Source: Candidatus Omnitrophota bacterium (lineage in GTDB: Bacteria; Omnitrophota; Gorgyraeia; Zapsychrales; JAKLDJ01). From it: a DNA stretch of 64,000 nucleotides. Below, piece by piece: positions 33,123-59,946 of the stretch. Position numbers and translations under genes: made by a program. The notes beneath the pieces were generated by a model. That model was not told the origin of the DNA. It searched no databases and was given only the letters and a program-made list of their open reading frames with translations. Positions within the stretch are counted from its first letter, which is position 1. Each line of letters starts with the position of its first letter. The stretch covers positions 5,353-69,352 of the forward strand of contig JAKLDJ010000005.1 of NCBI GenBank assembly GCA_022703585.1, written 5' to 3'.

Positions 33123-33132
33123 TAGAAATTAA

Positions 33133-33364: not shown

Positions 33365-36337
<2,973 letters not shown>

Positions 36338-36565: not shown

Positions 36566-36568
36566 TTC

Positions 36569-36648: not shown

Positions 36649-36652
36649 AAAA

Positions 36653-37037: not shown

Positions 37038-38620
<1,583 letters not shown>

Positions 38621-38797
38621 TAATGACTTGGCTTTAAAACATTTAAACAGGCAATAAAATTTTCAAAGAGCAAAAAAAATTCAGGCGGCATGCCTTGCGG
38701 CATGCCGCAGAATTTGGAGAATACGTTTTAAATGATTAAGATCGAAGTGGTTCTTGAATTACTTCTCGCTGAAGTGTTCCTTCGTTGAGGTGGCACA

Positions 38798-42460: not shown

Positions 42461-43234
42461 CTATTTCGCCATTTTCTGATCATAATCAATAACCGGCTTT
42501 GTCCAAGGCGTTTGCTGATTAATCACCGCCAATTCCAGCGGACAAGAATTAGCCGGCACGGAAAGCGCGAACATCACCATATCGGCAACCGTCTCGGGAG
42601 ACATCAAACGTTCTTTTTGTTCCTGGGTAATATTCGCCAAGTGGTCAGTTAAGTCGCTGTCGACCACGCCGGGAAGGATCGAGGTAATCTTGATCCCCCG
42701 GTCGCGCATTTCCCAGAAAAGCCCTTTTAAAAATGCCCTCAATCCCACCTTAAGCGAACTATAGGTTAAAAATGTTTTCGGCAGCGGATCACATAACGTC
42801 GAACCAGAAACCATATTAATAATCGCCCCTTCTTTTCGCTCGATCATGTGGTTGATAACCAAACGAATCAGGCGCACATAGCCCAAATAATTGGTGTGGG
42901 CGAGTTTTTCGATATCCTCCAGCGGCTGTTTTTCAAACGGGTATTGACTGGAAACACCGGCATTATTAATAAGGATATCAATATTCTTAAATTCCTTGAT
43001 CGCCGTATCAACCAGATTCTTTAAATCATCTAACTTGCTGACATCGGTCGGAACGCCGATGACTTTAACTTTATACTTTGAAGAAAGTTCTTTTGCGGTT
43101 TCATCCAAAGTTTCTTTGGTGCGCGCCGCCAAAACCAGATTAACCCCGGCCTGTGCCAAGCGTACCGCCACCGCCTTGCCTATCCCGCGACTGGCGCCGG
43201 TAATAATTGCGCATTTTCCTTTGAGATTTGACAT
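42461..43234 (-). CDS. SDR family oxidoreductase (FabG-like ketoreductase)
   Basis: 257 aa; it has TGASRGIGKAVAV, NNAG and YSSLKVGLRAF (YxxxK). Confidence 0.8.
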   Translation of the reverse strand: MSNLKGKCAIITGASRGIGKAVAVRLAQAGVNLVLAARTKETLDETAKELSSKYKVKVIGVPTDVSKLDDLKNLVDTAIKEFKNIDILINNAGVSSQYPFEKQPLEDIEKLAHTNYLGYVRLIRLVINHMIERKEGAIINMVSGSTLCDPLPKTFLTYSSLKVGLRAFLKGLFWEMRDRGIKITSILPGVVDSDLTDHLANITQEQKERLMSPETVADMVMFALSVPANSCPLELAVINQQTPWTKPVIDYDQKMAK

Positions 43235-44487: not shown

Positions 44488-44940
44488 TTATTTCTTTGCG
44501 GCCAAACCCGCTTCTTTTTCAATCACTTCCTTAAAGATCTGCATATTCTTTGTGGAATGTTGATTAACAAACCCCTCCACTTTCTCGTCGTTAAATTTGG
44601 CCTTGGGGTCCATGGCAAAATCCTGAATCCAGACCATCTCAACACCGTCGGGAGTTTCATTATAAAGCCAGATGATTTTCATATACTTAAACGGAAACAT
44701 CGGCTCCCAGCGTGAAGCGTAAGCAAATTTCAAATCCTTGTACAGCCAGCGCTTGGAAACCCATGATTTATTCTCGTCGTCGGTTAAGCGAAATGTGATT
44801 TCGTTCCCCTTCTTTTCCAAAACTTCGGCTTTGACATATTCCTTGCCGAAGAGCGAACTCCATCTCGGAATGTCATTCGAAATATCAAAAACTAAGCTGT
44901 ACGGAGCGTTGATAGTAATAACGTTTCTGGTGTGGCCCAT
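44488..44940 (-). CDS. SRPBCC superfamily protein (polyketide cyclase/dehydrase-like)
   Basis: 150 aa with a Bet v1-like profile (N-terminal beta strands, long C-terminal helix). The family assignment rests on overall pattern only. Confidence 0.5.
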   Translation of the reverse strand: MGHTRNVITINAPYSLVFDISNDIPRWSSLFGKEYVKAEVLEKKGNEITFRLTDDENKSWVSKRWLYKDLKFAYASRWEPMFPFKYMKIIWLYNETPDGVEMVWIQDFAMDPKAKFNDEKVEGFVNQHSTKNMQIFKEVIEKEAGLAAKK

Positions 44941-45962: not shown

Positions 45963-46766
45963 TTATTCTACCATGGCAACGACTCTGGTCCAGCCCGCCC
46001 CAGCGTTTCTTACCTTCACGGGAAAGCAACTTACGGTAAATCCGTAATCCTTGGGGATCGCGCCTAAATTTCCCATGCGCTCCATATGGCAATATTCCCG
46101 TCGCCGGCCCAAGAAATGCGAAGGCCATATCTTCGACTTATCTTTCGTGCTTAAAAATTCTTTAAACATATTAAAGCATGGGCGGTCAAGGCCGATGGTA
46201 TCGATCCCCATCATCTTCACGCCCTGGTCTAAAATATATTCTACCGCATCCGGCATCATCCCGACATACTTATTGACATAATCATCCGTTCCTAGCAATT
46301 TGTCCCCATTGGTCCAGATGAGCACGATGTCCATCGGTTTTATTTTGTAATTAATTTTCTTAAGGGCCTCCTCGACCTGCTTTTTGTCGATAACATCCGG
46401 ATATTTTAGGTGGGTAAAATCAAGCCGCACGCCGTTACCGTAGCACCACTCCAGCGGTACATCCATAATCTGTTTGGCGGGCTTGCCCTCGCATTTACTT
46501 CCGTAATGAAACGGGGCATCCACGTGAGTGCCCATGTGCACCGAGGCATTAACAATTTCGAGAGAGAGCATTTCTCCGTCGGGAATCTCGCTGGATTTGG
46601 CCACACGTTCGCCCTTGTCAAATTTTTCCTGGCCCTGGGGCTGTTTACTCATCACCACCCAGTTAAAGTGCTCTACCCCTTCCTGGTGGCTGATGCGGTC
46701 GATCTTTGCGGCATGGGTTTCCAGAAGCGTGTCGTCAATGGGAAGACTGAGGTCGATGATTTTCAT
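45963..46766 (-). CDS. Putative cyclase family protein (kynurenine formamidase-like, PF04199-like)
   Basis: 267 aa; HMGTHVDAPFHY matches the HxGTHxDxPxH metal-binding signature of the family. Confidence 0.65.
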   Translation of the reverse strand: MKIIDLSLPIDDTLLETHAAKIDRISHQEGVEHFNWVVMSKQPQGQEKFDKGERVAKSSEIPDGEMLSLEIVNASVHMGTHVDAPFHYGSKCEGKPAKQIMDVPLEWCYGNGVRLDFTHLKYPDVIDKKQVEEALKKINYKIKPMDIVLIWTNGDKLLGTDDYVNKYVGMMPDAVEYILDQGVKMMGIDTIGLDRPCFNMFKEFLSTKDKSKIWPSHFLGRRREYCHMERMGNLGAIPKDYGFTVSCFPVKVRNAGAGWTRVVAMVE

Positions 46767-46851: not shown

Positions 46852-47088
46852 TTAATTTACCCCTTTCGCTTTTAAAATGCTAATAATCTCATTAAACGTA
46901 TGCGTCTTTTTAACCTCGTTGTCGGCCAGCGGGATACCAAACTCTTTCTTGAGCCCGACGGAAATCTCCACCATTTCAGTCGAGTCAATCCCCAGCGCCT
47001 GGTCGAGCTTGACGTCCGGCTTTATCTCATTGGGGTTAACATCCAGGACTTTCTTAAAAATGCCTTTTGCTCTATCTTCAACACTCAT
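46852..47088 (-). CDS. Acyl carrier protein
   Basis: 78 aa; LGIDSTEMVE is the phosphopantetheine-attachment motif (DS(L/T)). Confidence 0.8.
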   Translation of the reverse strand: MSVEDRAKGIFKKVLDVNPNEIKPDVKLDQALGIDSTEMVEISVGLKKEFGIPLADNEVKKTHTFNEIISILKAKGVN

Positions 47089-47112: not shown

Positions 47113-48345
47113 TTATGGCTTCTCAACAATTAATGCGCAGTTAATCCCTCCGCGGCCTCGGGAGATAATCAGCGCTTTTTTAATTTCCTTAGCCTGCGCC
47201 TTATTCGGACAGTAATCGAGATCACATTCCGGGTCAGACGTCGAATAGTTGATCGTCGGCGGAACCAGGCTGTTTTCCATCGCCAGAATCGTGGTAATAA
47301 GATCCAGCGCGCCGGAAGCCCCCAGAAGATTTCCAAACATCGATTTAGGCGCCGAGACGGGAATTTTTTTGGCATGACTGTTAAACGCCAGCTTGATCCC
47401 CTTAGTCTCGGTCGTGTCCCCAATCTTTGTTCCTGCCCCGTCCGCACAAATGTAATCAATTTCAGAAGGGCTTACTCCCGCATCATCAAGGGCTATCTTA
47501 ATGGCACGGCCCAGCTCTTTGCCGTCGGAAGCCGGTTCAATGTGGTCCACGCCGTCGGTGGTCGTGCCGTAGCCGATAATATTAGCGTACACACGGGCAT
47601 TTTTTTGTTTAACCCGTTCGCGCGACTCTAAGATCAAAATACCCGCCCCTTCACCGATCGCAAATCCGTCGCGGGTTTTATCAAAAGGCCGATAGGCGCT
47701 TTGGGGTAAATGATTGCGCTTGGTCAGCATCCCTGAGGTATTGCAGCACAAAAGCGCATACGGCGACACCGGAGCCTCCATGCCTCCGGCTAAAATAAAA
47801 TCATTCTTGCCGTGATTAAGATTTTTTGCGGCATAGGCAATCGCCATTAAAGAACTTGCCCGGTCGGAAACAACGGTCTTGCTGTAACCCTTGATACCGT
47901 ACTGAATCGAAATTTGCCCCTGCGGCGCCGCCGGAAACCAGGCTGAAGCCATAAATGGACTCACCCCTTCACGGCCCTCCAAATACATATCACGCAGTTC
48001 GGTTTCGGCATACAGCCAGCCGCCGATCGCGTTACCCGCAAAGATCCCGACGCGCTTTAAATCTTCCTTGGTCATATCAAGCTTGGCATCTTGAATCGCC
48101 ATTTCGGAAGCCACCAGCGCCATATGCGAAAAAAGGTCGATCTTCTTTAAAAGTCTCGATGAGACCTGGCTGTAAACTTCCAGCTCCTTGACCTGACCGG
48201 CAATATGCGACGGATAAAGCGATGACTCAAACCGATCGATATTGCTCACCATTGAGTGCCCGGATTTGATATTGGCCCAAAAGACCCTTTTGTCAATACC
48301 GCTCGGGGACACAACCCCCAAACCTGTAATCGCTATTTTTTCCAT
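47113..48345 (-). CDS. Chain-length-factor-like beta-ketoacyl synthase paralogue (KS-beta) with all three catalytic residues substituted
   Basis: It has the KAS fold throughout. The Cys position reads SDRASSL (no Cys). The His positions read CADGAGTKIGD (His to Asp) and FGNLLGASGA (His to Asn). The likely start is Met 48345 (MEKIAITGLGVV), preceded by RBS AAGGAAGG. The ORF-track start at 48429 would overlap the upstream KS by 73 nt. Confidence 0.7.
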   Translation of the reverse strand: MEKIAITGLGVVSPSGIDKRVFWANIKSGHSMVSNIDRFESSLYPSHIAGQVKELEVYSQVSSRLLKKIDLFSHMALVASEMAIQDAKLDMTKEDLKRVGIFAGNAIGGWLYAETELRDMYLEGREGVSPFMASAWFPAAPQGQISIQYGIKGYSKTVVSDRASSLMAIAYAAKNLNHGKNDFILAGGMEAPVSPYALLCCNTSGMLTKRNHLPQSAYRPFDKTRDGFAIGEGAGILILESRERVKQKNARVYANIIGYGTTTDGVDHIEPASDGKELGRAIKIALDDAGVSPSEIDYICADGAGTKIGDTTETKGIKLAFNSHAKKIPVSAPKSMFGNLLGASGALDLITTILAMENSLVPPTINYSTSDPECDLDYCPNKAQAKEIKKALIISRGRGGINCALIVEKP

Positions 48346-48356: not shown

Positions 48357-49616
48357 TTATTTTTCGAACCTTCTTAGAACCATCGACGAATGCACGCCGG
48401 AAAAACCGCTTGAGGTCTTCAGCATGCAATTGATTTTCTTGTTTCTCGCCTTATTGGGAATATAATCCAAGTCGCACTCGGGATCGGGAAATTCCTGATT
48501 GATTGTCGGAGGCAATATATTGCGCTCGAAAATAAGAGCGCAAACCGCCAGCTCCACCCCATTAGCCGCCGCCAAGGGGTGGCCAATCATTGATTTTAGA
48601 GAACTAATCGGAATCTTGTAGGCGTATTCCCCGAGCGCTTGTTTATAGGCATTGGTTTCAAAGACATCGTTTTGCCGCGTCGAAGAACCGTGGGCATTAA
48701 TATAATCAAGGTCTTCGGGTTTAACATTCGCGTCTTTAAGAGCGAGCAAAATCGAGTCACGCATGGCATCGCCTTCGGATGGCAAATCCGTCATATGAAA
48801 GGCATTGCAGGTCGTACCGAATCCTAAAACCTCACAATAGATCCGTGCCCCGCGGTTTAACGCATGCTGGAGTTCTTCCAAGATTAGAATCCCGCAGCCC
48901 TCGGACGCCACAAAACCGTTTCTCTTGGCATCAAACGGCCTCGAGGCCTTTTCCGGCATATCATTGTGCACCGATAAAACGTTGACCACATCAAAAGCCC
49001 CCAGCGTAATCGGAGTAATCGGCGCTTCACTGGCCCCCGCGATCATAACATCGGCGTCCCCGTCCTGGATTGCTTCTAATGAAAACCCAACCGCATCCGT
49101 TCCGGCGGTGCAACCGGTTGAAATCGTATTACAAACACCCTTTAAGCCATACTTAGCGGAAATTTCGCTTGACGGCGTATTAAACATCGCGGCATCGTAG
49201 AGATCCGGCCTTACGCCCTTAGGGTCAATGGGTAATTTGCCGCTGTCCGTCACCAAAGCAAATTCTTCTTCCATGTATTTCGTTCCGCAAATTGCGTTGG
49301 CTAATGAAATACCCATTCGCTCTTTGTTCACTTTTGATAAATCCAATTTTGCATCCTCCAGTGCCTCGCGTGCCGCCACCATGGCAAACTGGACATAGCG
49401 ATCCATACGGACGACCTCGTCGGAATTAAGCCCCGATTTAAACGGGTCGAAATCCCTGACCTGGGCGGCAATTTTTGTATTAAACATCGAGACATCAAAT
49501 TCGGTCACCCGTTTAACGCCCGAGACACCGTTGATCATCCCCTTCCAGCAGGCCTCGTTTCCGACGCCATTAGGGGAAATAAGCCCTACCCCTGTTACCA
49601 CCACTCTTCTTTTCAT
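48357..49616 (-). CDS. Beta-ketoacyl-ACP synthase (active KS-alpha-like)
   Basis: 419 aa with catalytic Cys (ISTGCTAGTDA) and both His (NAHGSSTRQND; IGHPLAAANG). Confidence 0.85.
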   Translation of the reverse strand: MKRRVVVTGVGLISPNGVGNEACWKGMINGVSGVKRVTEFDVSMFNTKIAAQVRDFDPFKSGLNSDEVVRMDRYVQFAMVAAREALEDAKLDLSKVNKERMGISLANAICGTKYMEEEFALVTDSGKLPIDPKGVRPDLYDAAMFNTPSSEISAKYGLKGVCNTISTGCTAGTDAVGFSLEAIQDGDADVMIAGASEAPITPITLGAFDVVNVLSVHNDMPEKASRPFDAKRNGFVASEGCGILILEELQHALNRGARIYCEVLGFGTTCNAFHMTDLPSEGDAMRDSILLALKDANVKPEDLDYINAHGSSTRQNDVFETNAYKQALGEYAYKIPISSLKSMIGHPLAAANGVELAVCALIFERNILPPTINQEFPDPECDLDYIPNKARNKKINCMLKTSSGFSGVHSSMVLRRFEK

Positions 49617-50279
49617 TTATTTTCTCCGTTTCAGTTTCTTTGCTTTAGAAATCTTTGATTTTGCACCGACCGCTTTTTTATTTTTTTGCGCCCCCAAAAC
49701 TCCTTCGAGGCGTTCGAGCTTAAACCGGTTTCCCCCCATGGGACAGGTAAGCGTATTGATCTGATTTTGCGGATTCATATGTTTATAATTGGCGCCATGA
49801 TACAAGGCATACACCGCCGGAAACATCATGGCATAGGCCGTGGCACAAAAGTTCGCAGGTGTTTTTAATCCGTCGATCTCGAAGGTTTGCCCCAGTTTGT
49901 AACCGCAGGTGCAACCCTTTCCCATAACCTCATAGATGCTGGCCCGCAATTTTGGCTTCTTGTTTTTATCCGCCTGATTCTTTTTCGTTACTACCACATT
50001 GCCGTCTGCATTCAAAAGCTCGACCAAGAACTTCATCTTGGCGTGATCCGGACAGGTCACGATCGCGGACGAGGCATTCTCTAAATCGTTAAATTGCGCC
50101 CCAAAGGTTAGCGCGTACAAGGTGGGAAAGACATTCTGCGCGATTCCTAAACAAAAATGTTTGGGGGCATGGGTAAAATCATCCAGAATAAATTGCTGCC
50201 CGACAAAATAGTCGTGGTAGCAATAACCGCTATTCTCGACGATTGTTAGCCTTAATTTTGGAAATATACCTGGGGCCAT
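49617..50279 (-). CDS. Tandem-duplicated TIGR04076-like domain protein
   Basis: 220 aa with two homologous halves. The first is KLRLTIVENSGYCYHDYFVGQQFILDD...CLGIAQNVFPTLYALTFGAQF. The second is KLRASIYEVMGKGCTCGYKLGQTFEIDGL...FCATAYAMMFPAVYALYHGANY. The family call is from memory of the TIGR04076 pattern and is tentative. Confidence 0.45.
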   Translation of the reverse strand: MAPGIFPKLRLTIVENSGYCYHDYFVGQQFILDDFTHAPKHFCLGIAQNVFPTLYALTFGAQFNDLENASSAIVTCPDHAKMKFLVELLNADGNVVVTKKNQADKNKKPKLRASIYEVMGKGCTCGYKLGQTFEIDGLKTPANFCATAYAMMFPAVYALYHGANYKHMNPQNQINTLTCPMGGNRFKLERLEGVLGAQKNKKAVGAKSKISKAKKLKRRK

Positions 50280-50290
50280 TTTTCTTCCTC

Positions 50291-51289
50291 TTAAATAAGA
50301 TTAAATTCTTTCTTTATTTCTTCGACTGAAAAAAACTTTCCGGAATTTTCAACCTCATGGACCATCTCAACGACCTTGCGGTTTAGCGGGACTTTAAGCC
50401 CGCTATGCTTCGCCAAAAGAACTATTTCGCCGTTAATATAATCGATCTCACTCACCTTTTTACGCAGAATGCTTTGTAAAATCGAGCCGTAGAGCGGCTC
50501 TTTGCTTAAAGTCGTCATTGTCTTGTTGATAATCCCCGCCGCTTGGTCAACCGGCATAGTTACCAGCCCCAGTATTCGCTCGACGGGGAAGTGCGGCAAA
50601 GAAACAAGCCCGACACCGACATTGTGCACAGCCTCAACGCCTTCTTTGAGCAATAAAACGCTCAAACGGCACAAATGCATATCCGCATAAGTTTCCTGCA
50701 TCGGCTTACCGGTTAACGCCGGCAGGCAGTTGTTGAAATTAACAAAAAGTTTCAGCCATTTCATGCCCATGATATCGGGCGCGATAACAACCGCGAATGC
50801 CTTGCGCACAATTTCATAAATGTCCGAAACGACATGATCATTCATTGAAAACGGTTTTCCGATAACCCAGTCACCCTCAAAGTTAAACGTCACTTCGCCG
50901 GGATTGGTGTAGGTTGCCCCAAACATAACAATGCTGGATACAATCTTTTCCTTTTCTAAATGCCCGCTTAAAATATTGTCCGCCTGAACACCGTTTTGGG
51001 TAGTCAGAATAATTGCATTATCCAGAAACTCGCAATTGTCCGTGTAAGCAGTCTCAAGGTCCTGGGTCTTAACCGTAAAAATAACCAAATCGTACTCGCG
51101 GTCAAGCCGCACCAAGCTGTTTAAATGAAAAACCTCCTCGCCTCGGACACCTTTAATACGCAAACCGCTGCTGCGGATCGCCTGCACCTGTTGCGGCTTA
51201 CCGATCAAGGCAACGTCTTCTCCTGCCTTGGATAAATACGCCGCCACCACCGACCCGATGGCCCCCGCTCCGATAACAGCAATTTTCAT
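50291..51289 (-). CDS. 2-dehydropantoate 2-reductase (ketopantoate reductase/ApbA) family oxidoreductase
   Basis: 332 aa; it has the N-terminal Rossmann motif MKIAVIGAGAIGS and an overall KPR-like length. Confidence 0.6.
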   Translation of the reverse strand: MKIAVIGAGAIGSVVAAYLSKAGEDVALIGKPQQVQAIRSSGLRIKGVRGEEVFHLNSLVRLDREYDLVIFTVKTQDLETAYTDNCEFLDNAIILTTQNGVQADNILSGHLEKEKIVSSIVMFGATYTNPGEVTFNFEGDWVIGKPFSMNDHVVSDIYEIVRKAFAVVIAPDIMGMKWLKLFVNFNNCLPALTGKPMQETYADMHLCRLSVLLLKEGVEAVHNVGVGLVSLPHFPVERILGLVTMPVDQAAGIINKTMTTLSKEPLYGSILQSILRKKVSEIDYINGEIVLLAKHSGLKVPLNRKVVEMVHEVENSGKFFSVEEIKKEFNLI

Positions 51290-51834
51290 TGCTCTTTTAA
51301 TTCCTTTTCTTTCTTGACCGCATAGTCTCTTAGCGCTGCCAAGATCATCTTAATATTGCTATCATGAAGCTTTTTAAATAAAACCGGCCACAAAATCTTG
51401 TTAACAATTCCCTGGATCTGACAGTCCATGTAATAATCAACCCGGGTGCCGTTCAACCGCTCATCAATCACCACCCACTCTTTGCCCTTAAACATGCCGT
51501 CCAAGAAGGTGCGCTCGATTTCGCGGTTCGGCACTAATTTTGTTACCTCGACTTTCCAATGAGGGCCTAGCGGCAGCAGCACTTTTTGCTCAAACTGCGT
51601 TCCCACACGCAATTCCCCCTCGGTCAGCCGGGTAAATTTCATCGCGCATTTTTTTGGCCACCAGGACGATTCACCCCAAAGGATAACCTCTGGCGCCACA
51701 ATGCTCTCCGGCACCTCGATAAAAACAAAATGATGATTGATGTTGTCGTGTTTTGTTTTTTTAAACATAAAAAATCTTTCCGGCTGCTCAATCTTACCTG
51801 GTCTCGTATTTCTTGTAATCAAATCCCGCATCAC
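51286..51834 (-). CDS. SRPBCC-like protein (possible polyketide cyclase/aromatase-type)
   Basis: 182 aa. It overlaps the downstream gene by 4 nt. The Bet v1-like assignment is by pattern only. Confidence 0.35.
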   Translation of the reverse strand: MMRDLITRNTRPGKIEQPERFFMFKKTKHDNINHHFVFIEVPESIVAPEVILWGESSWWPKKCAMKFTRLTEGELRVGTQFEQKVLLPLGPHWKVEVTKLVPNREIERTFLDGMFKGKEWVVIDERLNGTRVDYYMDCQIQGIVNKILWPVLFKKLHDSNIKMILAALRDYAVKKEKELKEQ

Positions 51835-52081
51835 CTAACAGCTTAACCATAAGGCTGTAAAACGCGATAGGCACTTCGGTAAAAAAAGCCCGCACGATAT
51901 CCTGCTCCTCGACGAGCTTGGCACTGCGTTCGCGGGCGTTGATCTCGGCTTTTTTGTAGACAACATTACGGGCAATATCCCGGTGAAAAAGCGGCAGCCG
52001 CGCAATAACATTTTCAAATTTCTTACGCGCCTCGCTATCCCAGGGAGATTGTTGGGAAGCATTTGCTTGCGTATTCGGCAT
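51794..52081 (-). CDS. PCP_red (protochlorophyllide reductase subunit-B C-terminal-like) domain protein
   Basis: 95 aa; WDSEARKKFENVIARLPLFHRDIARNVVYKKAEINARERSAKLVEEQDIVRAFF matches the W..EA...L..IP.F.R..AR...E..ARE consensus of the PCP_red domain. Confidence 0.55.
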   Translation of the reverse strand: MPNTQANASQQSPWDSEARKKFENVIARLPLFHRDIARNVVYKKAEINARERSAKLVEEQDIVRAFFTEVPIAFYSLMVKLLGDAGFDYKKYETR

Positions 52082-52122
52082 AAAAGAATTCCTTTCCTAT
52101 GGCTCAATAAAACTAATTCAAA

Positions 52123-53592
52123 TTATACGTACAGGTCTTTCTTGGTCGAGGTGGCCTCAAACTTTGATATATTACTCATAAAATCCTGCACGCAAAGTTT
52201 GGCTAAATTGTCATAATCGCTTTCCATAATCCGGTGAATGCGTTCAGGCTTTGAGTAAAATTCACGCATGCACCAGCTGCCCAAACGCCCCACGTCTTCT
52301 ATAGATAAATGTTTTGTGGGGATTACAGGATGAAGAAAATCCCATTCCTTAAGATTGATCTTGCGCGGATTGACCCAGCCGTTATCAATGGCCCTCTTCC
52401 AGAGAACCGAACCCGGGACCGGAGTCACGTAATCCAGCGCCAGGATATCCGGATCGATTTGGTCGGCGACATGCGCGCGCTCTTTAATAGATGCTTCGGT
52501 GTCGTTTTCCATGCCGATCAAAACCGTGCCCACCGTCGCGATATTGTTTTCGCGTAATTTATCGATTGTGGTTTTAATCTGCTGGAGCGTAACCTTCTTA
52601 CCGATTTTCTGTAATTCCGCGTCCGAGGACACCTCCACCCCCACCAAACCCATGAAAAGACCGGCCTTGGCCATTAAGGGATACAGGTCCAGTTGGTTCG
52701 TCCAGTCGTCGGCCCTCCCTAAACAAACCCATTTGATCTTGATGCCTCTTTTAATTTTTTCTTCGCAAAATTCTTTCATGACCTCACGGCTGACGTTAAA
52801 GGCATCATCTTGGATAACGACAACCTTAACACCGTATTTCTTTTCGAGCAATTCCAGCTCATCAACGATTCTTTGGGCCGAATGCCCGCGCCAGGAAGTA
52901 AAATCCTTTTTACTCGAACGCGGATCATACAGGCTCCATTCATAACAGAAATTGCATCCCCCCGGACATCCGCGTGACGTCATAAGTTCCGCAAACGGTT
53001 TCCAGTAAGTATGCCCGACGTAGCGGTCCATGGGAAATAAATCGTACGCCGGCATCGGCAGGACATCAATATTAGGAATAAGCGAACGATGCGGCCCGAC
53101 GACGACCTTTCCGCCTTCTCGCGAGGCCAAACCCGGAATATCCTTAAATTCCCGGGTTTTGTTTTTGTGATTTGAAATCAGATCCGCGAGAGTTAATTCT
53201 CCTTCGCCGATCAAAATATGGTCGATTTGAGGATAATCCTCCATGCATTCAACGTAAAATGCCGAATACCACAAGCCGCCCATAACCGTGATCGTCTTGG
53301 GTAAAACCTCTTTGATGCGCTTCGCGGTTTCATTAAAATGCCACAGGACCGCGAGACCGCCGGTCGAATGCAGCAGATCGCCAAAAACAGCAAAATCCGG
53401 CTTTATCTTTTTAACCTCGTCGATCATTTGATCGTAGGTCAAGTCAAGCGCCTTGGCATCCAGGACCGCAACTTCGGCCAGGCCTTTTTCTCTGATATAG
53501 GCCGCGAGCTGGGCATAGAATTGGTTAGCTGCTTTATGATTGCCGTGCGTTACCCATGAACCCATCGGTGGGGTAATAAATAAAACTTTCAT
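52123..53592 (-). CDS. B12-binding domain radical SAM enzyme
   Basis: 489 aa. The N-terminus is a cobalamin-binding Rossmann-like region. The radical SAM cluster motif is SRGCPGGCNFC (CxxxCxxC). Confidence 0.8.
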   Translation of the reverse strand: MKVLFITPPMGSWVTHGNHKAANQFYAQLAAYIREKGLAEVAVLDAKALDLTYDQMIDEVKKIKPDFAVFGDLLHSTGGLAVLWHFNETAKRIKEVLPKTITVMGGLWYSAFYVECMEDYPQIDHILIGEGELTLADLISNHKNKTREFKDIPGLASREGGKVVVGPHRSLIPNIDVLPMPAYDLFPMDRYVGHTYWKPFAELMTSRGCPGGCNFCYEWSLYDPRSSKKDFTSWRGHSAQRIVDELELLEKKYGVKVVVIQDDAFNVSREVMKEFCEEKIKRGIKIKWVCLGRADDWTNQLDLYPLMAKAGLFMGLVGVEVSSDAELQKIGKKVTLQQIKTTIDKLRENNIATVGTVLIGMENDTEASIKERAHVADQIDPDILALDYVTPVPGSVLWKRAIDNGWVNPRKINLKEWDFLHPVIPTKHLSIEDVGRLGSWCMREFYSKPERIHRIMESDYDNLAKLCVQDFMSNISKFEATSTKKDLYV

Positions 53593-53675: not shown

Positions 53676-55154
53676 TCAAAACCAGCTGGCGGCCAACGGC
53701 ATGCCACCCGGGGTTTTATCGACGCAAACATGTTTCACTTGCGTGTATTCAAAGAGCCCTTCCAGGCCCAATTCCCGCCCCATGCCGCTTTGTTTATAAC
53801 CGCCAAACGGCGCCTCATTATAAAAACCGCCGTAGGTGTTTACCCAAACCGTCCCGGCCTTGATTTTCTTTGCCACACGGTTTGCTTTGTCTAAATCCCT
53901 GGACCAAACACATGCCGCGAGGCCAAATTTTGTATCGTTGGCGATTTTGACCGCCTCGTCTTCGCCGGAGAATTTGATAACAGCCAAGACCGGCCCAAAT
54001 ATTTCCTCCTGGGCAATCGCCATAGAATTATCAACGTCAGCAAAGATGGTCGGCTCGATGTAAAAACCTTTTTCTCTTCCCTGAACAACCGCGCGTTTCC
54101 CTCCGCACATCAATTTAGCCCCTTGCGCGGATCCTTTTTGTACAAAATTTAATACGTTTTGCAACTGTTGCTCATTGGCCAAGGGCCCAAAATCCGTCGA
54201 GTAATCGCGCGCATCGCCTACTTTTAACTTCTTGGTTCGCTCAACCAGGGCGAGCAAAAACTTATCATAAATTTTATCTTCCAGCAAAAGTCTGGAGCCG
54301 GCCGTGCACATTTGTCCCTGATTCATAAAAATAGCGGACATGGTACCGCCTAAGGCAGCGTCAAAATCACAATCGGCAAAAACGATGTTGGGCGATTTGC
54401 CGCCTAGTTCCAGAGTTAACTTTTTTGTATTCAGGGCGGCAAATCGCATGACCTCTTTGCCGGTTTCGGTGCCGCCGGTAAAACTGATCTTATCTACCAA
54501 GGTGCTGCTGATTAATTCAGCGGTTACATTGTGGTCACGGCTGGTAATAAAATTAAAAACGCCTTTAGGCAATCCGGTTTCGTTTATAATTTCCGCCAGC
54601 CGTGCCGTCGACACACTCGCCTGCGACGAAGGCTTAAAAATAACCGTGTTTCCGGCTATTAACGCCGGGGCTACCTTCCAGCCAAACATAATTAAAGGAT
54701 AATTCCAGGGGATAATACAACCGACCACCCCCACCGGCTCGCGCAGCAAAGTACTTTTAACCGGAGCGGCCACGTTAATTTCTTTTTCTAAATCTAAAGC
54801 AATATTGCCGAAATATTCAAATGTATCGGCGCAGGTGGGGACATCGATAAAGGTCGCGTGCTTTGTCGTCTTGCCGACGTCTAAAGTTTCCAATTCGGCT
54901 AATTCTTTTGAATATTCGCGGATTTTTTGCGCTATCGAAATTAAATATTTTCCCCGCTCTTTGACCGATAGCCGGGACCAGGCGCCGTGATCAAATGATG
55001 CACGCGCAACCTCAATCGCTGTCTTCATATCGGCAACCGTCGCATCGGCCACTTGTGCAAAGACTTCCCCGTCCGAAGGATTAACAGCATCAAAATATTT
55101 ATTGCTGCCGGATGCCTTTATTTCACCGTTAATAAACAGTTGATATTTTTTCAT
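53676..55154 (-). CDS. NAD(P)-dependent aldehyde dehydrogenase
   Basis: 492 aa; it has an ALDH glutamate region (LELGGKSP) and the catalytic Cys region (NQGQMCTAGSR). Confidence 0.85.
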   Translation of the reverse strand: MKKYQLFINGEIKASGSNKYFDAVNPSDGEVFAQVADATVADMKTAIEVARASFDHGAWSRLSVKERGKYLISIAQKIREYSKELAELETLDVGKTTKHATFIDVPTCADTFEYFGNIALDLEKEINVAAPVKSTLLREPVGVVGCIIPWNYPLIMFGWKVAPALIAGNTVIFKPSSQASVSTARLAEIINETGLPKGVFNFITSRDHNVTAELISSTLVDKISFTGGTETGKEVMRFAALNTKKLTLELGGKSPNIVFADCDFDAALGGTMSAIFMNQGQMCTAGSRLLLEDKIYDKFLLALVERTKKLKVGDARDYSTDFGPLANEQQLQNVLNFVQKGSAQGAKLMCGGKRAVVQGREKGFYIEPTIFADVDNSMAIAQEEIFGPVLAVIKFSGEDEAVKIANDTKFGLAACVWSRDLDKANRVAKKIKAGTVWVNTYGGFYNEAPFGGYKQSGMGRELGLEGLFEYTQVKHVCVDKTPGGMPLAASWF

Positions 55155-55157: not shown

Positions 55158-56177
55158 TTATTCAATTCCTGCGTTGGTCCAAACTTCAAAAATCCGGCTG
55201 CAGGGCGCGTACCATTTTGAGATCCTGGCAAAATCGCCGCGCAGATTCATTTTCTTCTGCGTCGTCGCTACAAAGGGATCGATTTCGCGGTTAAATACAG
55301 CCCGCCACACACCCTCGGAAGCCGAAATCAGAAATTCGGCATTTTCGTCGCTGCCGGTTTTTATGATCCGTCCGTCTTTAAAACTAAAGCTGTATACCTG
55401 GCCGGTTTCGTTGAGCTTAACCGCCAAATCCATGGTCATTTGCGTCTTTTGGCCGAGTTCTTTAAGCGGTGCGTCATTATTGACAAGTTTTACAATTTCA
55501 TCCATCTGCTCTTTTGAAAAGAGTTTGTACTTCTTGGTTTGCGACCCCTGGCCCGTCGCCTGGTGACTGACGGCTGGTGACTGTTGACTGACGGCTGTTG
55601 ACTCCGCCTTATACAATCGGCTTATCACGTCAATCTTCACCGCCTCTTCAAGTCCCTGGATAAGCAGAAAACAGTCAAAAAGAGTGTTCCCCATCGCCAC
55701 AGCTCCGTGATTGCGTAAAACCATAATGCTATTTTTCTTAAGCGCCGCGATAACCGGAGCAACATCCGTGACTGACGGCGTATGCTGCTCGACCGATTCA
55801 ATCTTTCCCAAATAAAGCCTCGCCTCAAAGGTCGACGGTGTTAATTCGACATTGACACTATAAAATGCATTTGTATACGTTGTGTGAGTATGGATAATGG
55901 CTTTTGCATCGGGAAAATTATTATAGATTTCTGTATGTAGCGGTTTCTCGCTTGAAGGCTTACCCTCACCGATAACATTGCCTTTAAGGTCAAGCAGGAC
56001 AATCTCGTCCGCGCTTAATCTCCCCAGGCAGGTATTGCGCCCGGTTAAAAGAATTTTATCCCCATCAACGCGGCAGCTGATGTTGCCGTTTAAACCTGTT
56101 GCCAGATTCTTATCCCAGAGAAGTTTCCCGGCTTCGATCATGTCATTCTTTAATTGCAGAATTGATTTTTCGCTCAT
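55158..56177 (-). CDS. Class II aldolase/adducin-family protein (MtnB/fuculose-phosphate-aldolase-like) fused to a C-terminal SCP2-like domain
   Basis: The N-terminal half has the class II aldolase metal-binding HTH (AIIHTHTTY). The C-terminal ~110 aa is SCP2-like (DENAEFLISASEGVWRAVFNREIDPF...LRGDFARISKW). The likely start is Met 56177 (MSEKSILQ), overlapping the upstream stop as ATGA. Confidence 0.65.
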   Translation of the reverse strand: MSEKSILQLKNDMIEAGKLLWDKNLATGLNGNISCRVDGDKILLTGRNTCLGRLSADEIVLLDLKGNVIGEGKPSSEKPLHTEIYNNFPDAKAIIHTHTTYTNAFYSVNVELTPSTFEARLYLGKIESVEQHTPSVTDVAPVIAALKKNSIMVLRNHGAVAMGNTLFDCFLLIQGLEEAVKIDVISRLYKAESTAVSQQSPAVSHQATGQGSQTKKYKLFSKEQMDEIVKLVNNDAPLKELGQKTQMTMDLAVKLNETGQVYSFSFKDGRIIKTGSDENAEFLISASEGVWRAVFNREIDPFVATTQKKMNLRGDFARISKWYAPCSRIFEVWTNAGIE

Positions 56178-56656
56178 TGATAAATCCTCGTTATGTAAAC
56201 CTGCGGAACCCATTCGACCAAAGGAACGTATCCCTTAATTCCTTTGGGGGCTACCCGTGTACCGTTAAAGTACAATATCTCCTCACTTTTCCCCACCGAA
56301 ACAGTTTTACGGCGAGAAGTAACGAGATTAACCGCTACTTTGTGCCGCTTGGCCAAGACCGCCAAAATAAGAGATCCGATATCGCAGGTGGCGCCATTTT
56401 TATAACAAGCCTGACAACCGATCCAGACTTCTTTAACCAGACCTTTAAAAAACAGAAATCCCGCCATGTTATCCGCGATAACAACCGGTTTGATCTTTCG
56501 TTTGAGCAACTCTTGAGATAAAATCTTTGCCCCTTCCAGGCGCGGCCTCGACTCCAGGATAAAAACCGATTTAGCCCCCTTTTTCTTAAATTGATCCAAG
56601 AGAGAACCTTCCACAAGGCCGTGAACAAGAATAATCGATTTTTTCTTAATTAACAT
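56174..56656 (-). CDS. Truncated eIF-2B/MtnA (e2b2) family paralogue (C-terminal domain only)
   Basis: 160 aa. It matches the e2b2 C-domain pattern: VHGLVEGS...ILESRPRLEGAKILSQEL...VVIADNMAGFL...VWIGCQACYKNGATCDIGSLILAVLAKRH. Confidence 0.55.
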   Translation of the reverse strand: MLIKKKSIILVHGLVEGSLLDQFKKKGAKSVFILESRPRLEGAKILSQELLKRKIKPVVIADNMAGFLFFKGLVKEVWIGCQACYKNGATCDIGSLILAVLAKRHKVAVNLVTSRRKTVSVGKSEEILYFNGTRVAPKGIKGYVPLVEWVPQVYITRIYQ

Positions 56657-57626
56657 TGATCGCTATGGGTTGTGTGATCAGCTCATGGGGTACAACATCA
56701 AATCCGGGATAGAAACCTTCCACCCCTGGAGACACAACTTTCTTCCCGGAAAAACTCAGCAATTCTTCCGGGTCTCTTATTTCAATAGGGATATCCTCCC
56801 CACGCGCAATCTTTTTTGACGGCTGCGTCAGGGCATGAAAGGGAATACCAAACTCCTTAGCTAAAACCGCGATTTGGTAGGTCCCGATTTTATTGGCAAT
56901 ATCCCCATTGGCGCAGGAACGGTCAGAACCGACGATAACCCGGTTAATCTTGTTGCCGCGTAACAAAAGCCCGACCGCATTATCGGCGACCAAGGTCACA
57001 TCCGCCCCCGCCAACTTTAATTCCCAGCAGGTCAGCTTGGCCCCCTGAAAATAGGGACGGGTTTCGGTGGCAAAAAATCGCACCGTCTTTCTTTGCGCCT
57101 TGCATATCCGCGCCGCCATAGCCAGCTCACCGCTGACGTTGCAATGAGTCAGAATCGTCTCTTTATCCTGAATGACCGAGGCGATTTGTTCGACACGCTG
57201 TAATCGGCGAATCCTAATCCCCATTAAAAAACCGTTAATATTCTGGCAAAGGAATCCTACTAAATCTTTTTTCTGCGCTACCGCCTGATGCGCCCAGCCT
57301 ACAACCATAGCCGTCACTTCAGAAAAAGGAAATGTAGGCCGGCTGGCGTTTAAGGCTGTGGCGGTTTTTTGTAAAACTTTTAGCAATACTTTTGGGGAAC
57401 TCTTTTTATTTTTATCCAGTACCAGCAAAAACGTATTTAAAACCACCAAAAATTGCCCGAAGGCACGCGTCTTCATCTGGCGGATACATGCAACAGCCTG
57501 CTTGGTATTTCTTACCTTGACGTAGACTAGCCGCCCGGGCAAAAGGGTTTCATCAATGACCCAAAGGGTATTGCCCTTTAACTGCGCCGGCCAAAAGAGA
57601 GGAGATTCCCAAACCTTTTTTTGCAT
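56646..57626 (-). CDS. e2b2 family sugar-phosphate isomerase (methylthioribose-1-P / 5-deoxyribose-1-P isomerase-like, MtnA-like)
   Basis: 326 aa. It has ILTHCNVSGELAMAARI...ATETRPYFQGAKLTCWEL and the signature GSDRSCANGDIANKIGTYQIAVLAKEFGIPFH. Confidence 0.7.
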   Translation of the reverse strand: MQKKVWESPLFWPAQLKGNTLWVIDETLLPGRLVYVKVRNTKQAVACIRQMKTRAFGQFLVVLNTFLLVLDKNKKSSPKVLLKVLQKTATALNASRPTFPFSEVTAMVVGWAHQAVAQKKDLVGFLCQNINGFLMGIRIRRLQRVEQIASVIQDKETILTHCNVSGELAMAARICKAQRKTVRFFATETRPYFQGAKLTCWELKLAGADVTLVADNAVGLLLRGNKINRVIVGSDRSCANGDIANKIGTYQIAVLAKEFGIPFHALTQPSKKIARGEDIPIEIRDPEELLSFSGKKVVSPGVEGFYPGFDVVPHELITQPIAINVN

Positions 57627-57630: not shown

Positions 57631-58395
57631 TTACTTCCCTTCCAATTTCTTGATTAAATTAAGTGCAATGGAAATCATCGAGCCCTCAGCCATATAATAC
57701 ATCGGATTCATAAAGCCCATTTCTCCGGTCATAACATTGTCACTGACCGCTAAGATAACCGCCGCCCGCACCTTATACAGCTGGGCAATGGTTAGAAAAG
57801 TCGAGGTCACCATATCGACTGCGATCGCGCCTTTTTGTGCTGCCTTACCCACATGCTCGCGGGTCTCGCGCAAGATCGCATCCGTCGACCAGGCCTTGCC
57901 TTGATGAATAGTCTGTCCAGTTGCCTTGGCAACTTCTAAAAGAGATTCGGTTAAACCCTTGTCAGCCACCGTCTCAAATTTTTCATCCACATAGTACGGC
58001 GTAACCCCGTCGCCGCGTAACGCACTATCGGCAACAATCAAATCACCGACTTTAATATCTTCAGATAACGCGCCGCAACTGCCGATACGGATCATGCAAT
58101 TGGCCTGCGCATTACAAAGAATCTCAGTGGTAATAGCCGTATCCGCGGAAAAACGCCCGCCGTTAATCGCCGTCACCTTCGTGCCTTCGAAAGTTCCGGT
58201 GAACATCGAATATTCCATAAAGCTAAAATTCTTTATCGGATTCTCGATTTTCTTTAAAAGACTGTCCAACCGCTCTTTTGGGCCCGGAACAATAGCGTAT
58301 TTTCCGATATCGCTGGGCCGAAGCTGAACCATGCCCATCAGATCACGGCCGGTTAAATGAACATCTTTTTTCATAACATGAGGCGCGCTGGACAT
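57631..58395 (-). CDS. PNP_UDP_1 family nucleoside phosphorylase (purine/MTA/5'-deoxyadenosine phosphorylase-like)
   Basis: 254 aa; IRIGSCGAL resembles the GTCGA motif of DeoD/MtnN-type enzymes. The fold-family assignment is by pattern. Confidence 0.65.
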   Translation of the reverse strand: MSSAPHVMKKDVHLTGRDLMGMVQLRPSDIGKYAIVPGPKERLDSLLKKIENPIKNFSFMEYSMFTGTFEGTKVTAINGGRFSADTAITTEILCNAQANCMIRIGSCGALSEDIKVGDLIVADSALRGDGVTPYYVDEKFETVADKGLTESLLEVAKATGQTIHQGKAWSTDAILRETREHVGKAAQKGAIAVDMVTSTFLTIAQLYKVRAAVILAVSDNVMTGEMGFMNPMYYMAEGSMISIALNLIKKLEGK

Positions 58396-58419: not shown

Positions 58420-59946
58420 TTAATTTTCTTTAACAGAATCTTTTTCGCTGATTTGCTTTAATAATTCTTTATCGATCTTTCCCACCCGGTTCTTAGCCAA
58501 GTCCTCGACGATCACGATCGAATGCGGTACCTTAAAATGCGCCAAATGCTCCCGCGCAAAATATCTTAGATCCTCCGCCGTCATGCTATCTTTTTGCTTC
58601 AAAACAACGAAGGCCTTAACCGCCTCCCCTCTTACCTTGTCCGGAACTCCGATCACCGCTACTTCGGCAACCGCCTCATGCTTGTGCAGTGCCGCCTCGA
58701 CTTCCGGCGCGTAAACAATTTGCCCGCCGACTTTAATCATCTCTTTCTTGCGCCCAACGATAAACAAAAACCCTTCCCCATCAAAACGACCCAAATCACC
58801 AGTATGAAACCAGCCATTACGTTTTAATTCATTGGTAGCTTCCGGGTCTTTATAATACCCTTCCATCACGGTCCAGCCACGGATGACAATTTCACCGATC
58901 TCGCCTGCGGCGACTTCGCGGTCATCTTCGTCAAAAATCTTAATCTCGCAGTGGGGTGATGGTTTGCCGACACTAGCGATTTTATCACTGCCCAGCGGTG
59001 TAACCGTGTTCGGCGGGCAGGTCTCAGTCATACCCCATCCGTTTAGGAAATGCGCGTTGGGGCAATACTGATGAAACCGTTTTAATATATCCGGCGAGCT
59101 CGGAGCGCCAAATACAACAATCCACCGCAAGGAAGATAGATTGAATTTCTCTATTTCTTTTAGCGATAAGAATGCCATGTACATCGCCGGGACAACATGA
59201 AAACAGGTAACTTTATACCGCTCGACATTACGCATAAATTCAATCGGATTAAAGCGGTCCATTAAAACTAAGGTGATGCCGAAGATAATACAGTTTTGAA
59301 CATAGATAAGCCCGGCAATATGGCTCAAAGGAAGAGCGCAAAGCTTTACATCTTTTTCTGTCAAATCCACAAAATATTCCATCGCCTTCGGCGAACCTTC
59401 GAGATGTTTGTAATTAAGCAAAATCCCCTTGGGCTTCCCGGTTGTGCCGGAGGTGTACATAATTAAGGAGAGATCACTATCGTTAACTTGCGCCTTCGGC
59501 GGTTGGGCGCTTGCCTTTGAGATAATTTCTTGATACGAAACCATCCCTGGCTCCTGCCCCTGAAGGAGAATCACCGTCTTAAGAGAAGAAACCGATTGCT
59601 TGATTAAAGAAAGCGCCAGGCCTTCTCGGGGCATGGCAATAAGATACTTCGTCTCCGAATGACTAAGGCAGGAAATAAGTTCATCTTCTTTGAGCATAAA
59701 ATCAAGAGGAACGCCCACCGCGCCCAGACAGAAAATCGCGAGATAGCTATAAATATATTCAGGGCAGTTCGGCAGATAAATCGCGACCTTATCGGATTTC
59801 TTAACACCGCAGTCAGCCAATGCATTGGCAAGCCGAAACACGTTCTCCTTAAGCCGGGAGAACGAAATTTCCGTTTCCTTGAAGACAATTGCCGTTTTTG
59901 ACGAGAAACGGTTTGACGTATCTTCTAGTAAATGCTTGATTTCCAT
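58420..59946 (-). CDS. AMP-dependent synthetase/ligase (acyl-CoA or acyl-ACP ligase)
   Basis: 508 aa. It has the AMP-binding motif MYTSGTTGKPKG, the GWGMTE motif, and the C-terminal GWFHTGDLGRFDGEGFLFIVGRKKEMIKVGG. Confidence 0.85.
   Translation of the reverse strand: MEIKHLLEDTSNRFSSKTAIVFKETEISFSRLKENVFRLANALADCGVKKSDKVAIYLPNCPEYIYSYLAIFCLGAVGVPLDFMLKEDELISCLSHSETKYLIAMPREGLALSLIKQSVSSLKTVILLQGQEPGMVSYQEIISKASAQPPKAQVNDSDLSLIMYTSGTTGKPKGILLNYKHLEGSPKAMEYFVDLTEKDVKLCALPLSHIAGLIYVQNCIIFGITLVLMDRFNPIEFMRNVERYKVTCFHVVPAMYMAFLSLKEIEKFNLSSLRWIVVFGAPSSPDILKRFHQYCPNAHFLNGWGMTETCPPNTVTPLGSDKIASVGKPSPHCEIKIFDEDDREVAAGEIGEIVIRGWTVMEGYYKDPEATNELKRNGWFHTGDLGRFDGEGFLFIVGRKKEMIKVGGQIVYAPEVEAALHKHEAVAEVAVIGVPDKVRGEAVKAFVVLKQKDSMTAEDLRYFAREHLAHFKVPHSIVIVEDLAKNRVGKIDKELLKQISEKDSVKEN

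Follow-up and report, generated by a model that had tools for sequence, protein, structure and literature searches.

Bacteria of the phylum Omnitrophota are widespread and mostly uncultivated, and their chemistry is barely known. This study concerns a gene cluster of ∼20 kb in a metagenome-assembled Candidatus Omnitrophota genome (assembly GCA_022703585.1), located on a stretch of 64,000 nucleotides (nt) of contig JAKLDJ010000005.1 (positions 5,353 to 69,352, hereafter the window). It encodes a B12-binding radical S-adenosylmethionine (SAM) enzyme (rSAM), a pair of ketosynthase-type proteins (KS1 and KS2), a ketopantoate-reductase-family (KPR) oxidoreductase and two small proteins, a tandem TIGR04076 protein (TIGR04076x2) and a 95-residue DUF2621-family protein (s95). 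Pairs of a ketosynthase (KS) and a chain-length factor (CLF) from Omnitrophica have already been catalogued, but not studied (PMC10132072), and antiSMASH 'ladderane' calls have been reported in Omnitrophota (PMC9902471). The anammox Cluster I, proposed for ladderane lipids, combines amxACP, an amxFabF2/amxFabF-mut heterodimer, amxFabZ and radical SAM enzymes (bioRxiv 10.64898/2026.05.19.726425). A phosphorylase, isomerase and class II aldolase together form an established 5-deoxyribose disposal route for what radical SAM enzymes leave as by-product (PMC6079011). For TIGR04076 and DUF2621, literature searches found no functional study; the sole published remark found on the role of TIGR04076 is a guess similar to the redox/metal role considered below, made for a Bilophila homolog whose gene adjoins a glycyl-radical activase (PMC8667426).

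The window cluster is best read as an orphan type II polyketide synthase (PKS)/fatty acid synthase (FAS)-like pathway that is conserved across Omnitrophota, a reading to which we assign a probability of roughly 0.55. The component families and the tandem TIGR04076 architecture are already known, and bulk surveys have reported Omnitrophota KS-CLF pairs as well as 'ladderane-like' calls. What is new is a defined, phylum-wide cluster with a fixed s95-KPR-TIGR04076x2-KS block, together with the modified 5'-deoxyadenosine disposal module to which it is optionally coupled. For TIGR04076 and DUF2621, the cluster also provides a first genomic association that is statistically solid, namely with a B12-binding rSAM, a KPR-family reductase and a KS/CLF pair, and this makes two families of 'function unknown' experimentally addressable.

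Conservation of gene order across loci

A metagenome scan with TIGR04076x2 returned 279 relatives; 80 loci were analysed, and the counts that follow take as denominator the loci with enough flanking sequence. The KPR gene lies immediately upstream of the tandem gene at 64 of 69 loci, KS1 immediately downstream at 53 of 59, and s95 upstream of the KPR-TIGR04076x2 pair at 45 of 56. A B12-binding rSAM is encoded within 7-8 kb of the tandem gene at 15 of the 17 loci with full flanks; most of these enzymes are 51-66% identical to the window rSAM and so are assigned as its orthologs. The commonest architecture runs PadR, s95, KPR, TIGR04076x2, KS1, KS2, rSAM, acyl carrier protein (ACP), cyclase, SRPBCC, at some loci MFS, and SDR, and carries no disposal genes. 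In other architectures the rSAM gene follows the SDR gene, and the ligase and phosphorylase alone are retained. The window-type arrangement, with its full phosphorylase-isomerase-aldolase-aldehyde dehydrogenase (ALDH) block, is a minority, and, judged by the shared accA-PadR synteny, this block appears to have been inserted between PadR and s95. What does not vary is thus a smaller unit than the window cluster: it comprises s95, KPR, TIGR04076x2, KS1 and KS2, while the rSAM stays in the cluster and is mobile inside it.

With the rSAM as anchor, an order of ∼17-20 genes is common to L006-L009, L012, L015, L018-L021, L024, L026 and L028 (labels of individual loci). The position of s95 directly downstream of the rSAM gene, pointed out in the first-pass annotation of the window, recurs at 11 of 11 rSAM-anchored cluster loci. 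TIGR04076x2 occupies the slot between KPR and KS1 at 4 of 14 junctions in this set, and in at least two genomes it is encoded elsewhere in the genome. Taken by itself, this would make the tandem protein a variable add-on, an idea that is overturned by the fixed KPR-TIGR04076x2-KS1 order of the TIGR04076-anchored set. Each of the two samples is biased by its anchor. The accA gene adjoins the cluster in L008 and L108. Overall, gene order is held over dozens of loci whose proteins are only 40-80% identical; the SDR is 65-81% identical in cluster loci. The high conservation of the cluster (63-77% identity for the rSAM, 71-83% for KS1, at loci with an Omnitrophota label or none) suggests that the product matters to these organisms and is not an occasional secondary metabolite.

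The ketosynthase pair and other polyketide-type genes

KS1 carries the triad motifs TGC, AHG and GHP, whereas pairwise alignment places Arg, Asp and Asn at the same positions of KS2. A triad-bearing subunit is thus encoded next to a triad-less paralog, the arrangement of a KS/CLF pair, and KS2 reads as chain-length-factor-like and catalytically dead. KS1 and KS2 are both closest to FabF; in comparisons of KS2 with the PDB, the anammox pair 9s5h scores lower than ordinary FabF. The nearest solved structures of the PF04199 'cyclase' are of the kynurenine formamidase and isatin hydrolase types. Those of the Amidohydro_2 protein are the 5-carboxyvanillate, gamma-resorcylate, 2,3-dihydroxybenzoate (2,3-DHBA) and salicylate decarboxylases and ACMSD, and its gene is kept in L006, L007, L009, L026 and many metagenomic loci.

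A third beta-ketoacyl synthase, stand-alone and 408 residues long with both ketoacyl-synt domains, is encoded outside the cluster (20231-21457, minus strand), adjoining a 7TM histidine kinase gene, and may be a housekeeping FabF/FabB.

The B12-binding radical SAM enzyme

The assignment of this gene as a B12-binding rSAM holds, with both the PF02310 and the PF04055 domain above their cutoffs. The protein has the makeup of a class B enzyme, an N-terminal B12-binding domain followed by a radical SAM domain with the CxxxCxxC motif (C209, C213 and C216), which is invariant in 21 of 21 orthologs. Its best-scoring named family is BchE (TIGR02026), at 218.9 bits against an equivalog cutoff of 481.35, and it reaches 84.4 bits against a cutoff of 360 for TIGR04072, the ladderane-type lipid B12-rSAM family. 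JGI names some orthologs BchE, an identity that is ruled out by the score and the PKS-like context. Homologs that are 63-77% identical fall into more than 120 clusters, of ∼490 residues and nearly all between 485 and 501; the source names among the matches listed are all Omnitrophota or Omnitrophica. AprD4 is among the PDB matches. Some B12-binding radical SAM enzymes, AprD4 for example, have been reported to act without use of cobalamin.

A second, distantly related B12-rSAM, similar to the one in L001, is encoded in L026 (15449-16570), L036, L041, L045, L058 and L109, either where the cluster ends or directly upstream of KPR.

The tandem TIGR04076 protein

The 220-residue protein does consist of two homologous TIGR04076 halves, as had been proposed from inspection: the family profile matches two stretches (88.1 bits, cutoff 33, E=4.1e-25), and self-alignment finds a significant internal duplication, with 33% identity between the halves (E=8e-11, Smith-Waterman z=19 against 1000 shuffles). 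Two details of that proposal need correction. Each repeat carries three conserved cysteines, in the pattern G-x-C / F-C-G / C-P-D, rather than a cysteine pair; these do not vary among 25 tandem homologs and occur in 36-40 of the 40 TIGR04076 sequences aligned, 38 of them single-domain. Nor is the tandem fusion new as an architecture. When a single repeat was the query of an exhaustive search, about a third of 60 representative clusters had two-repeat proteins, forms with three to four repeats were found as well, and homologs already bear the JGI name 'uncharacterized repeat protein (TIGR04076 family)'.

The confident AlphaFold2 model of TIGR04076x2 (pLDDT 86.7, pTM 0.81) gave nothing significant in a Foldseek search of the PDB, the best hits being XdhC-like (E=0.2-0.75), and a profile search of PDB sequences returned zero matches. 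An IscU-like scaffold was considered, given a superficially alike C-G-[SA]-A motif, and rejected, as no IscU structure was recovered. The stop codon of the gene abuts the start codon of KS1 (49617 / 49616). The window protein ends in a Lys-rich tail of 25 residues (196-220, positions 49617-49691) that is predicted to be disordered and is absent from 24 of 24 aligned homologs.

Outside the PKS-type cluster, a different B12-rSAM is encoded within ∼2 kb of TIGR04076x2 in five of nine distinct contexts (L001, L003, L074, L089 and L092), and L003 also has an s95 paralog (34% identical). Contigs retrieved for the context of a single-domain TIGR04076 gene were only ∼1 kb long. The proposal that the two small proteins are partners of the rSAM stands in part: co-location is conserved, but the tightest linkage is to the KPR/KS block and not one of adjacency to the rSAM.

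The s95 protein, the KPR-family reductase and an overlooked open reading frame

The placing of s95 in the PCP_red family fares less well than that of its gene directly after the rSAM. The PCP_red profile PF08369 gives 17.5 bits (E=0.0043) against a cutoff of 32.5, whereas PF11084 (DUF2621) is passed at a gathering threshold of 27.7 bits; among 12 orthologs, all match DUF2621 and six match PCP_red weakly (best E=4e-4). Some orthologs are named 'DUF2621 family protein' at NCBI. By profile, s95 is thus formally assigned to DUF2621 and not to PCP_red. Its AlphaFold2 model (pLDDT 84.7) has four helices, and a Foldseek search of the PDB ranks 2L09, the stand-alone PCP_red protein Asr4154, first and 2KRU, the PCP_red domain of BchB/ChlB, third, at E-values that are not significant (0.26 and 0.70). 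The superpositions cover 56-59 columns at a root-mean-square deviation of 3.1 Å, with TM-scores to the target of 0.50-0.52. On this model, a remote PCP_red-like homology is plausible. No nitrogenase-like partners of s95 were detected among the genes examined.

The KPR-like reductase is encoded where it had been placed, between rSAM/s95 and the tandem gene, and both of its Pfam domains are recognised. It passes the subfamily model TIGR00745 (167.7 bits, cutoff 141.35) but falls far below the best equivalog for a true 2-dehydropantoate 2-reductase (NF006083, 154.5 against 371 bits). Its nearest solved structures are 2-dehydropantoate 2-reductases (97 bits). The PKS-like context argues for a substrate other than ketopantoate.

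Between s95 and KPR lies an open reading frame (ORF) that had been overlooked. The mechanical call runs from a GTG at 51834 (51286-51834, 182 residues); the true start is probably the ATG at 51768, giving 160 residues, because orthologs in L006, L008 and L028 have 149-162. These orthologs match Polyketide_cyc2 weakly (E=0.002-0.008). A 164-residue gene of L003 was considered as a further ortholog and rejected, as it has no similarity.

The predicted 5'-deoxyadenosine disposal module

In the window, PF01048, PF01008 and PF00596 domains are encoded by consecutive genes. The NCBIfam equivalog scores of the block are all below cutoff. The phosphorylase matches NCBIfam models for uridine phosphorylase and the DeoD type, as well as HpnG (50 bits), all below cutoff, and is a candidate 5'-deoxyadenosine (or 5'-substituted adenosine) phosphorylase; its gene occurs in the cluster architectures labelled (i), (iii) and (iv). 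The MtnA-like protein is a predicted 5-deoxy/5-methylthio-ribose-1-phosphate isomerase (TIGR00512, 212 bits, cutoff 279). Directly after the full-length isomerase gene there is always a gene for a truncated IF-2B-family protein (141-181 residues among orthologs), which covers only positions 103-271 of the PF01008 profile, the C-terminal half of the fold, and is conserved in L006-L009, L015, L018 and L020-L022. No window-type cluster, not even the divergent L022, lacks the fusion of the aldolase to an SCP2 domain, which is also found in L006, L008, L022 and L026. The ligase that precedes the block scores just under the cutoff of the long-chain-fatty-acid--CoA ligase model NF004837 (472.5 against 476 bits). 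The full block is present in only one cluster architecture, which suggests that the disposal trio is accessory.

L022, whose rSAM is 48% identical to that of the window, keeps the ligase, rSAM, phosphorylase, both isomerases and the aldolase-SCP2 fusion. In this locus (14638-19379), the ligase/rSAM/disposal block is followed by genes for MMPL (sterol-sensing domain), LolA-like, DUF1302 and ALDH proteins, a gene set that suggests lipid export to the outer membrane.

Organization of the window locus

The first-pass annotation had treated the rSAM, s95, KPR and tandem genes as a group of their own. There are five ORFs in that interval, and they form the middle part of a much larger co-directional cluster (Table 1), in which every gene between 58395 and 42461 is encoded on the minus strand and neighbours either overlap or are separated by short gaps. 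In transcription order, a PadR regulator comes before the AMP-binding ligase, and the genes from the ligase to the ALDH precede the rSAM. A promoter-like site next to the ligase gene (60009-59982) agrees with the consensus at 11 of 12 positions, as a consensus match only; promoter and terminator scans gave no excess over shuffled controls.

Table 1. Genes of the window cluster in order of transcription
Feature	Position	Strand	Support
AMP-binding acyl-CoA/ACP ligase, first gene of the window-type cluster	58420..59946	(-)	conserved in cluster loci
PNP_UDP_1 nucleoside phosphorylase, DeoD/Udp type	57631..58395	(-)	PF01048 121.5 bits
MtnA-like (IF-2B family) isomerase	56646..57626	(-)	PF01008 169 bits
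Truncated second IF-2B-family protein, 160 aa	56174..56656	(-)	PF01008 71.8 bits
Class II aldolase (FucA/DrdA-like) with C-terminal SCP2 lipid-binding domain	55158..56213	(-)	PF00596 140 bits, PF02036 24.5 bits
NAD(P)-dependent aldehyde dehydrogenase	53676..55154	(-)	PF00171 575.7 bits; under every equivalog cutoff
B12-binding radical SAM enzyme (rSAM)	52123..53592	(-)	PF02310 44.4 bits, PF04055 66.6 bits
s95, 95-aa DUF2621-family protein, PCP_red-like N-terminal part	51794..52081	(-)	PF11084 29.7 bits
Variable SRPBCC-like protein, 160 aa	51286..51768	(-)	orthologs weakly Polyketide_cyc2
Ketopantoate-reductase-family (KPR) NAD(P)H oxidoreductase	50291..51289	(-)	PF02558 113.4 bits, PF08546 66 bits
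Tandem (2x) TIGR04076 protein, 220 aa (TIGR04076x2)	49617..50279	(-)	TIGR04076 88.1 bits
KS1, FabF-like ketosynthase, intact triad	48357..49616	(-)	TIGR03150 465.5 bits, cutoff 493.75
KS2, CLF-like KS, triad lost; probable ATG start 48345	47113..48345	(-)	orthologs 410-413 aa
Dedicated acyl carrier protein, GIDS motif	46852..47088	(-)	PF00550 38.1 bits; under AcpP equivalog cutoffs
PF04199 'putative cyclase' / metal-dependent hydrolase-fold protein	45963..46766	(-)	PF04199 102 bits
SRPBCC (Polyketide_cyc2) cyclase/dehydrase-like protein	44488..44940	(-)	PF10604 32.1 bits, cutoff 27.4; conserved in cluster
MFS transporter	43257..44396	(-)	PF07690 140.8 bits; kept in most architectures
SDR-family FabG-like ketoreductase	42461..43234	(-)	NF005806 3-ketoacyl-ACP reductase 171.9 bits, below cutoff
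Amidohydro_2 protein, cluster tail	38925..39836	(-)	PF04909 98.7 bits

The window cluster also carries insertions. A CorA transporter (44962-45882, minus strand) sits between the cyclase and SRPBCC genes in the window only and was undetected in related loci. Also undetected there are a phage-type ORF6N/Rha-like gene (40953-41480, minus strand) and an unassigned 256-residue ORF (39881-40651, minus strand), both between the SDR and Amidohydro_2 genes. Immediately 3' of the cluster tail lies a complete rRNA operon (33131-38624, minus strand), with 16S at 37037-38624, tRNAs at 36493-36565 and 36656-36728, 23S at 33370-36337 and 5S at 33131-33247. Farther away, the window encodes three paralogous histidine kinases with a HisKA_7TM N-terminal region (9990-11675, plus strand; 14318-16492 and 18543-20258, both minus strand), an HD-GYP-like HD_5 protein (11783-12961), and a protein that joins FecR-like and pretoxin-HINT (PT-HINT) domains (61471-62895, minus strand) and may be of polymorphic-toxin type.

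Proposed pathway and alternative explanations

In the proposed PKS/FAS-like pathway, KS1 and the inactive CLF-like KS2 would elongate a chain on the dedicated ACP, and the SDR and KPR-family enzymes would reduce its keto groups. The PF04199 cyclase, together with one or two SRPBCC proteins, would then fold or dehydrate the chain, the Amidohydro_2 enzyme would take off a carboxylate, and the transporter would export the product. The presence of cyclases and a decarboxylase-like enzyme suggests that this product is a phenolic or lipid-like polyketide. The B12-rSAM would tailor an unactivated carbon, either by methylation or by a BchE-like oxidation or cyclisation, with s95 and TIGR04076x2, the latter with its two three-cysteine modules, as pathway-specific accessory proteins. 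The Cys-rich tandem protein may hold a metal or Fe-S centre and serve the redox needs of the rSAM, and s95 may act as an adaptor; a redox/metal role of the cysteine modules is our preferred guess, and the accessory-partner idea as a whole is plausible. If the small proteins are dedicated B12-rSAM partners, they could aid in vitro reconstitution, which is hard for these enzymes. In window-type clusters, the phosphorylase, MtnA-like isomerases, class II aldolase and ALDH would dispose of the 5'-deoxyadenosine released by the rSAM.

Several observations weigh against this scheme. The sequences show the family memberships, the internal duplication, the lost KS2 triad and the conserved gene order; the enzymatic roles, the product class and the parts given to the small proteins are predictions. 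The rSAM lies under every equivalog cutoff, so its chemistry is not fixed by family, and TIGR04076 has no PDB relative by fold or sequence, so metal or Fe-S binding is guessed from the cysteines only. The cluster contains no acyltransferase, known-type dehydratase, enoyl reductase or thioesterase. For simple 5'-deoxyadenosine disposal, the SCP2 tail and the fatty-acyl-type ligase are superfluous. Orthologs of the rSAM also occur without the supposed partners: at seven loci (L010, L011, L013, L014, L016, L017 and L023), an enzyme 70-72% identical has no cluster gene within 10 kb, and L022 has no KS, KPR or s95. In L010, L013, L014, L017 and L023 the rSAM adjoins a 262-residue radical SAM protein, NrdD and NrdG; in L011 only the 262-residue protein is beside it, and the L016 contig is too short to show. 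All seven of these rSAMs group in one sub-clade, which is nested within the orthologs from cluster contexts. In most architectures, finally, s95 and TIGR04076x2 are tied to KPR and KS1 and not to the rSAM, and they may serve the ketosynthase or its starter unit instead.

That last point can be developed into an account in which s95, KPR and TIGR04076x2 work with the ketosynthase/ACP, on a 2-hydroxy- or 2-oxo-acid starter or on the ACP-bound chain, and the rSAM is an independent tailoring enzyme. KPR-family enzymes (PanE/ApbA) reduce 2-oxo acids. The s95-KPR-TIGR04076x2-KS1-KS2 block is fixed while the rSAM takes at least three positions in the cluster, the tandem gene abuts KS1 in the window and overlaps KPR by 4 nt in L108, and the rSAM orthologs of L022 and of the NrdD/NrdG sub-clade have none of the three genes nearby. 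Yet L003 pairs TIGR04076x2 and an s95 paralog with a different B12-rSAM where there is no KS or KPR, the non-PKS loci L001, L074, L089 and L092 likewise pair the tandem protein with a B12-rSAM, and s95 directly follows the rSAM throughout the window-type loci; we judge this account rather unlikely. The nature of the product can be read differently too, as a fatty acid or membrane lipid of an unusual kind rather than an aromatic compound, with the B12-rSAM modifying the acyl chain in the manner of anammox Cluster I. That system shares the theme of FabF, dead FabF, ACP and rSAM; both window KS proteins are closest to FabF, accA is next to the cluster in L008 and L108, and the SCP2 domain, the long-chain-type ligase, the MMPL and LolA-like genes of L022 and the 'ladderane' calls in Omnitrophota (PMC9902471) point the same way. 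The lack of a FabZ/FabA-type dehydratase or enoyl reductase, the conservation of the PF04199 cyclase, the SRPBCC proteins and an Amidohydro_2 enzyme that resembles aromatic-acid decarboxylases, and the low TIGR04072 score of the rSAM all tell against a lipid, and we regard it as unlikely.

Room for a more specialised role of the disposal block is left by its SCP2 fusion, by a ligase of fatty-acyl type and by the genes in L022 that suggest lipid export. Two independent proposals, either of which we hold to be improbable, go further: that, in window-type clusters, 5'-deoxyadenosine or a 5'-adenosylated lipid/polyketide adduct is converted into an acyl starter for the KS/CLF by the phosphorylase, MtnA-like isomerases, SCP2-fused aldolase, ALDH and fatty-acyl-type ligase, or that DUF2621, KPR and TIGR04076x2 make up a unit dedicated to the reductive activation of B12-rSAMs. 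Were the former true, the adenosyl moiety of SAM would be a carbon source for polyketide/lipid assembly. A more specific version, very improbable in our estimate, has the rSAM place 5'-deoxyadenosyl on a lipid/polyketide alkene and the phosphorylase, MtnA-like isomerases, aldolase-SCP2, ALDH and ligase trim the adduct to an acyl thioester two carbons longer that primes the KS/CLF, so that SAM acts as C2 donor. These genes and the rSAM, including both isomerases, travel together in window-type clusters and L022, the aldolase carries a lipid-binding SCP2 domain, the ligase is of fatty-acyl type and the phosphorylase is weakly HpnG-like. The HpnH/HpnG adenosylhopane chemistry is a precedent, as is the route by which S. 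cattleya converts 5'-fluorodeoxyadenosine to fluoroacetaldehyde (the latter described in PMC6079011). Against it, the commoner architectures do without isomerase, aldolase and ALDH, and the trio alone is fully explained as 5'-deoxyadenosine disposal. No B12-domain rSAM is known to adenosylate a substrate. Chance juxtaposition of unrelated genes, to which the uninformative promoter and terminator scans would be no obstacle, is in effect refuted by an order conserved over so many loci of such divergent proteins.

Comparison with known systems

The dihydroxyacetone phosphate (DHAP) shunt (PMC6079011, PMC10986504) combines a phosphorylase or kinase with an MtnA-like isomerase and class II aldolase. 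The window-type block encodes these three kinds of enzyme in an unchanged order, adjoining an rSAM that would produce 5'-deoxyadenosine, and its predicted substrates are sugars derived from that compound. It differs in its DeoD/Udp-type phosphorylase, its extra truncated isomerase paralog and its SCP2-fused aldolase. The block is also followed by an ALDH, preceded by a fatty-acyl-type ligase and confined to one cluster architecture.

TIGR04076x2 lies well over the hidden Markov model (HMM) cutoff and shares the G-x-C / F-C-G / C-P-D pattern of the single-domain, ∼90-residue TIGR04076 proteins of anaerobes, whereas its domain is in tandem and its gene fixed between KPR and ketosynthase genes. 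With PCP_red and DUF2621 proteins, s95 has in common the W..K..(I)P.F.R motif and a helical hairpin; unlike PCP_red, it adds a C-terminal helix pair and scores under the PCP_red gathering threshold. The rSAM shares with BchE (TIGR02026), its best-scoring named family, the B12-binding and radical SAM domains. However, the window host is no phototroph and the context is PKS-like, which makes a BchE annotation a misnomer.

Anammox Cluster I resembles the window cluster in the theme of a FabF/dead-FabF heterodimer, a predicted one here, the dedicated ACP, the B12-type rSAM and the related (PVC) lineage. In contrast to that system, the window rSAM is not a TIGR04072 member (84 bits against 360), and the window cluster has no FabZ and carries cyclases and a decarboxylase-like enzyme. 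With the minimal type II PKS system, including the non-actinobacterial KS-CLF clade (PMC10132072), the cluster shares an active KS with a triad-less partner and a dedicated ACP, and further the SRPBCC and PF04199 'cyclase' proteins, a ketoreductase and a transporter. Unlike those systems, its KS proteins are FabF-like and not actinorhodin-like, its CLF has Arg and not Gln at the position of the active-site Cys, and it keeps a B12-rSAM, KPR, TIGR04076x2 and a DUF2621 protein as conserved members.

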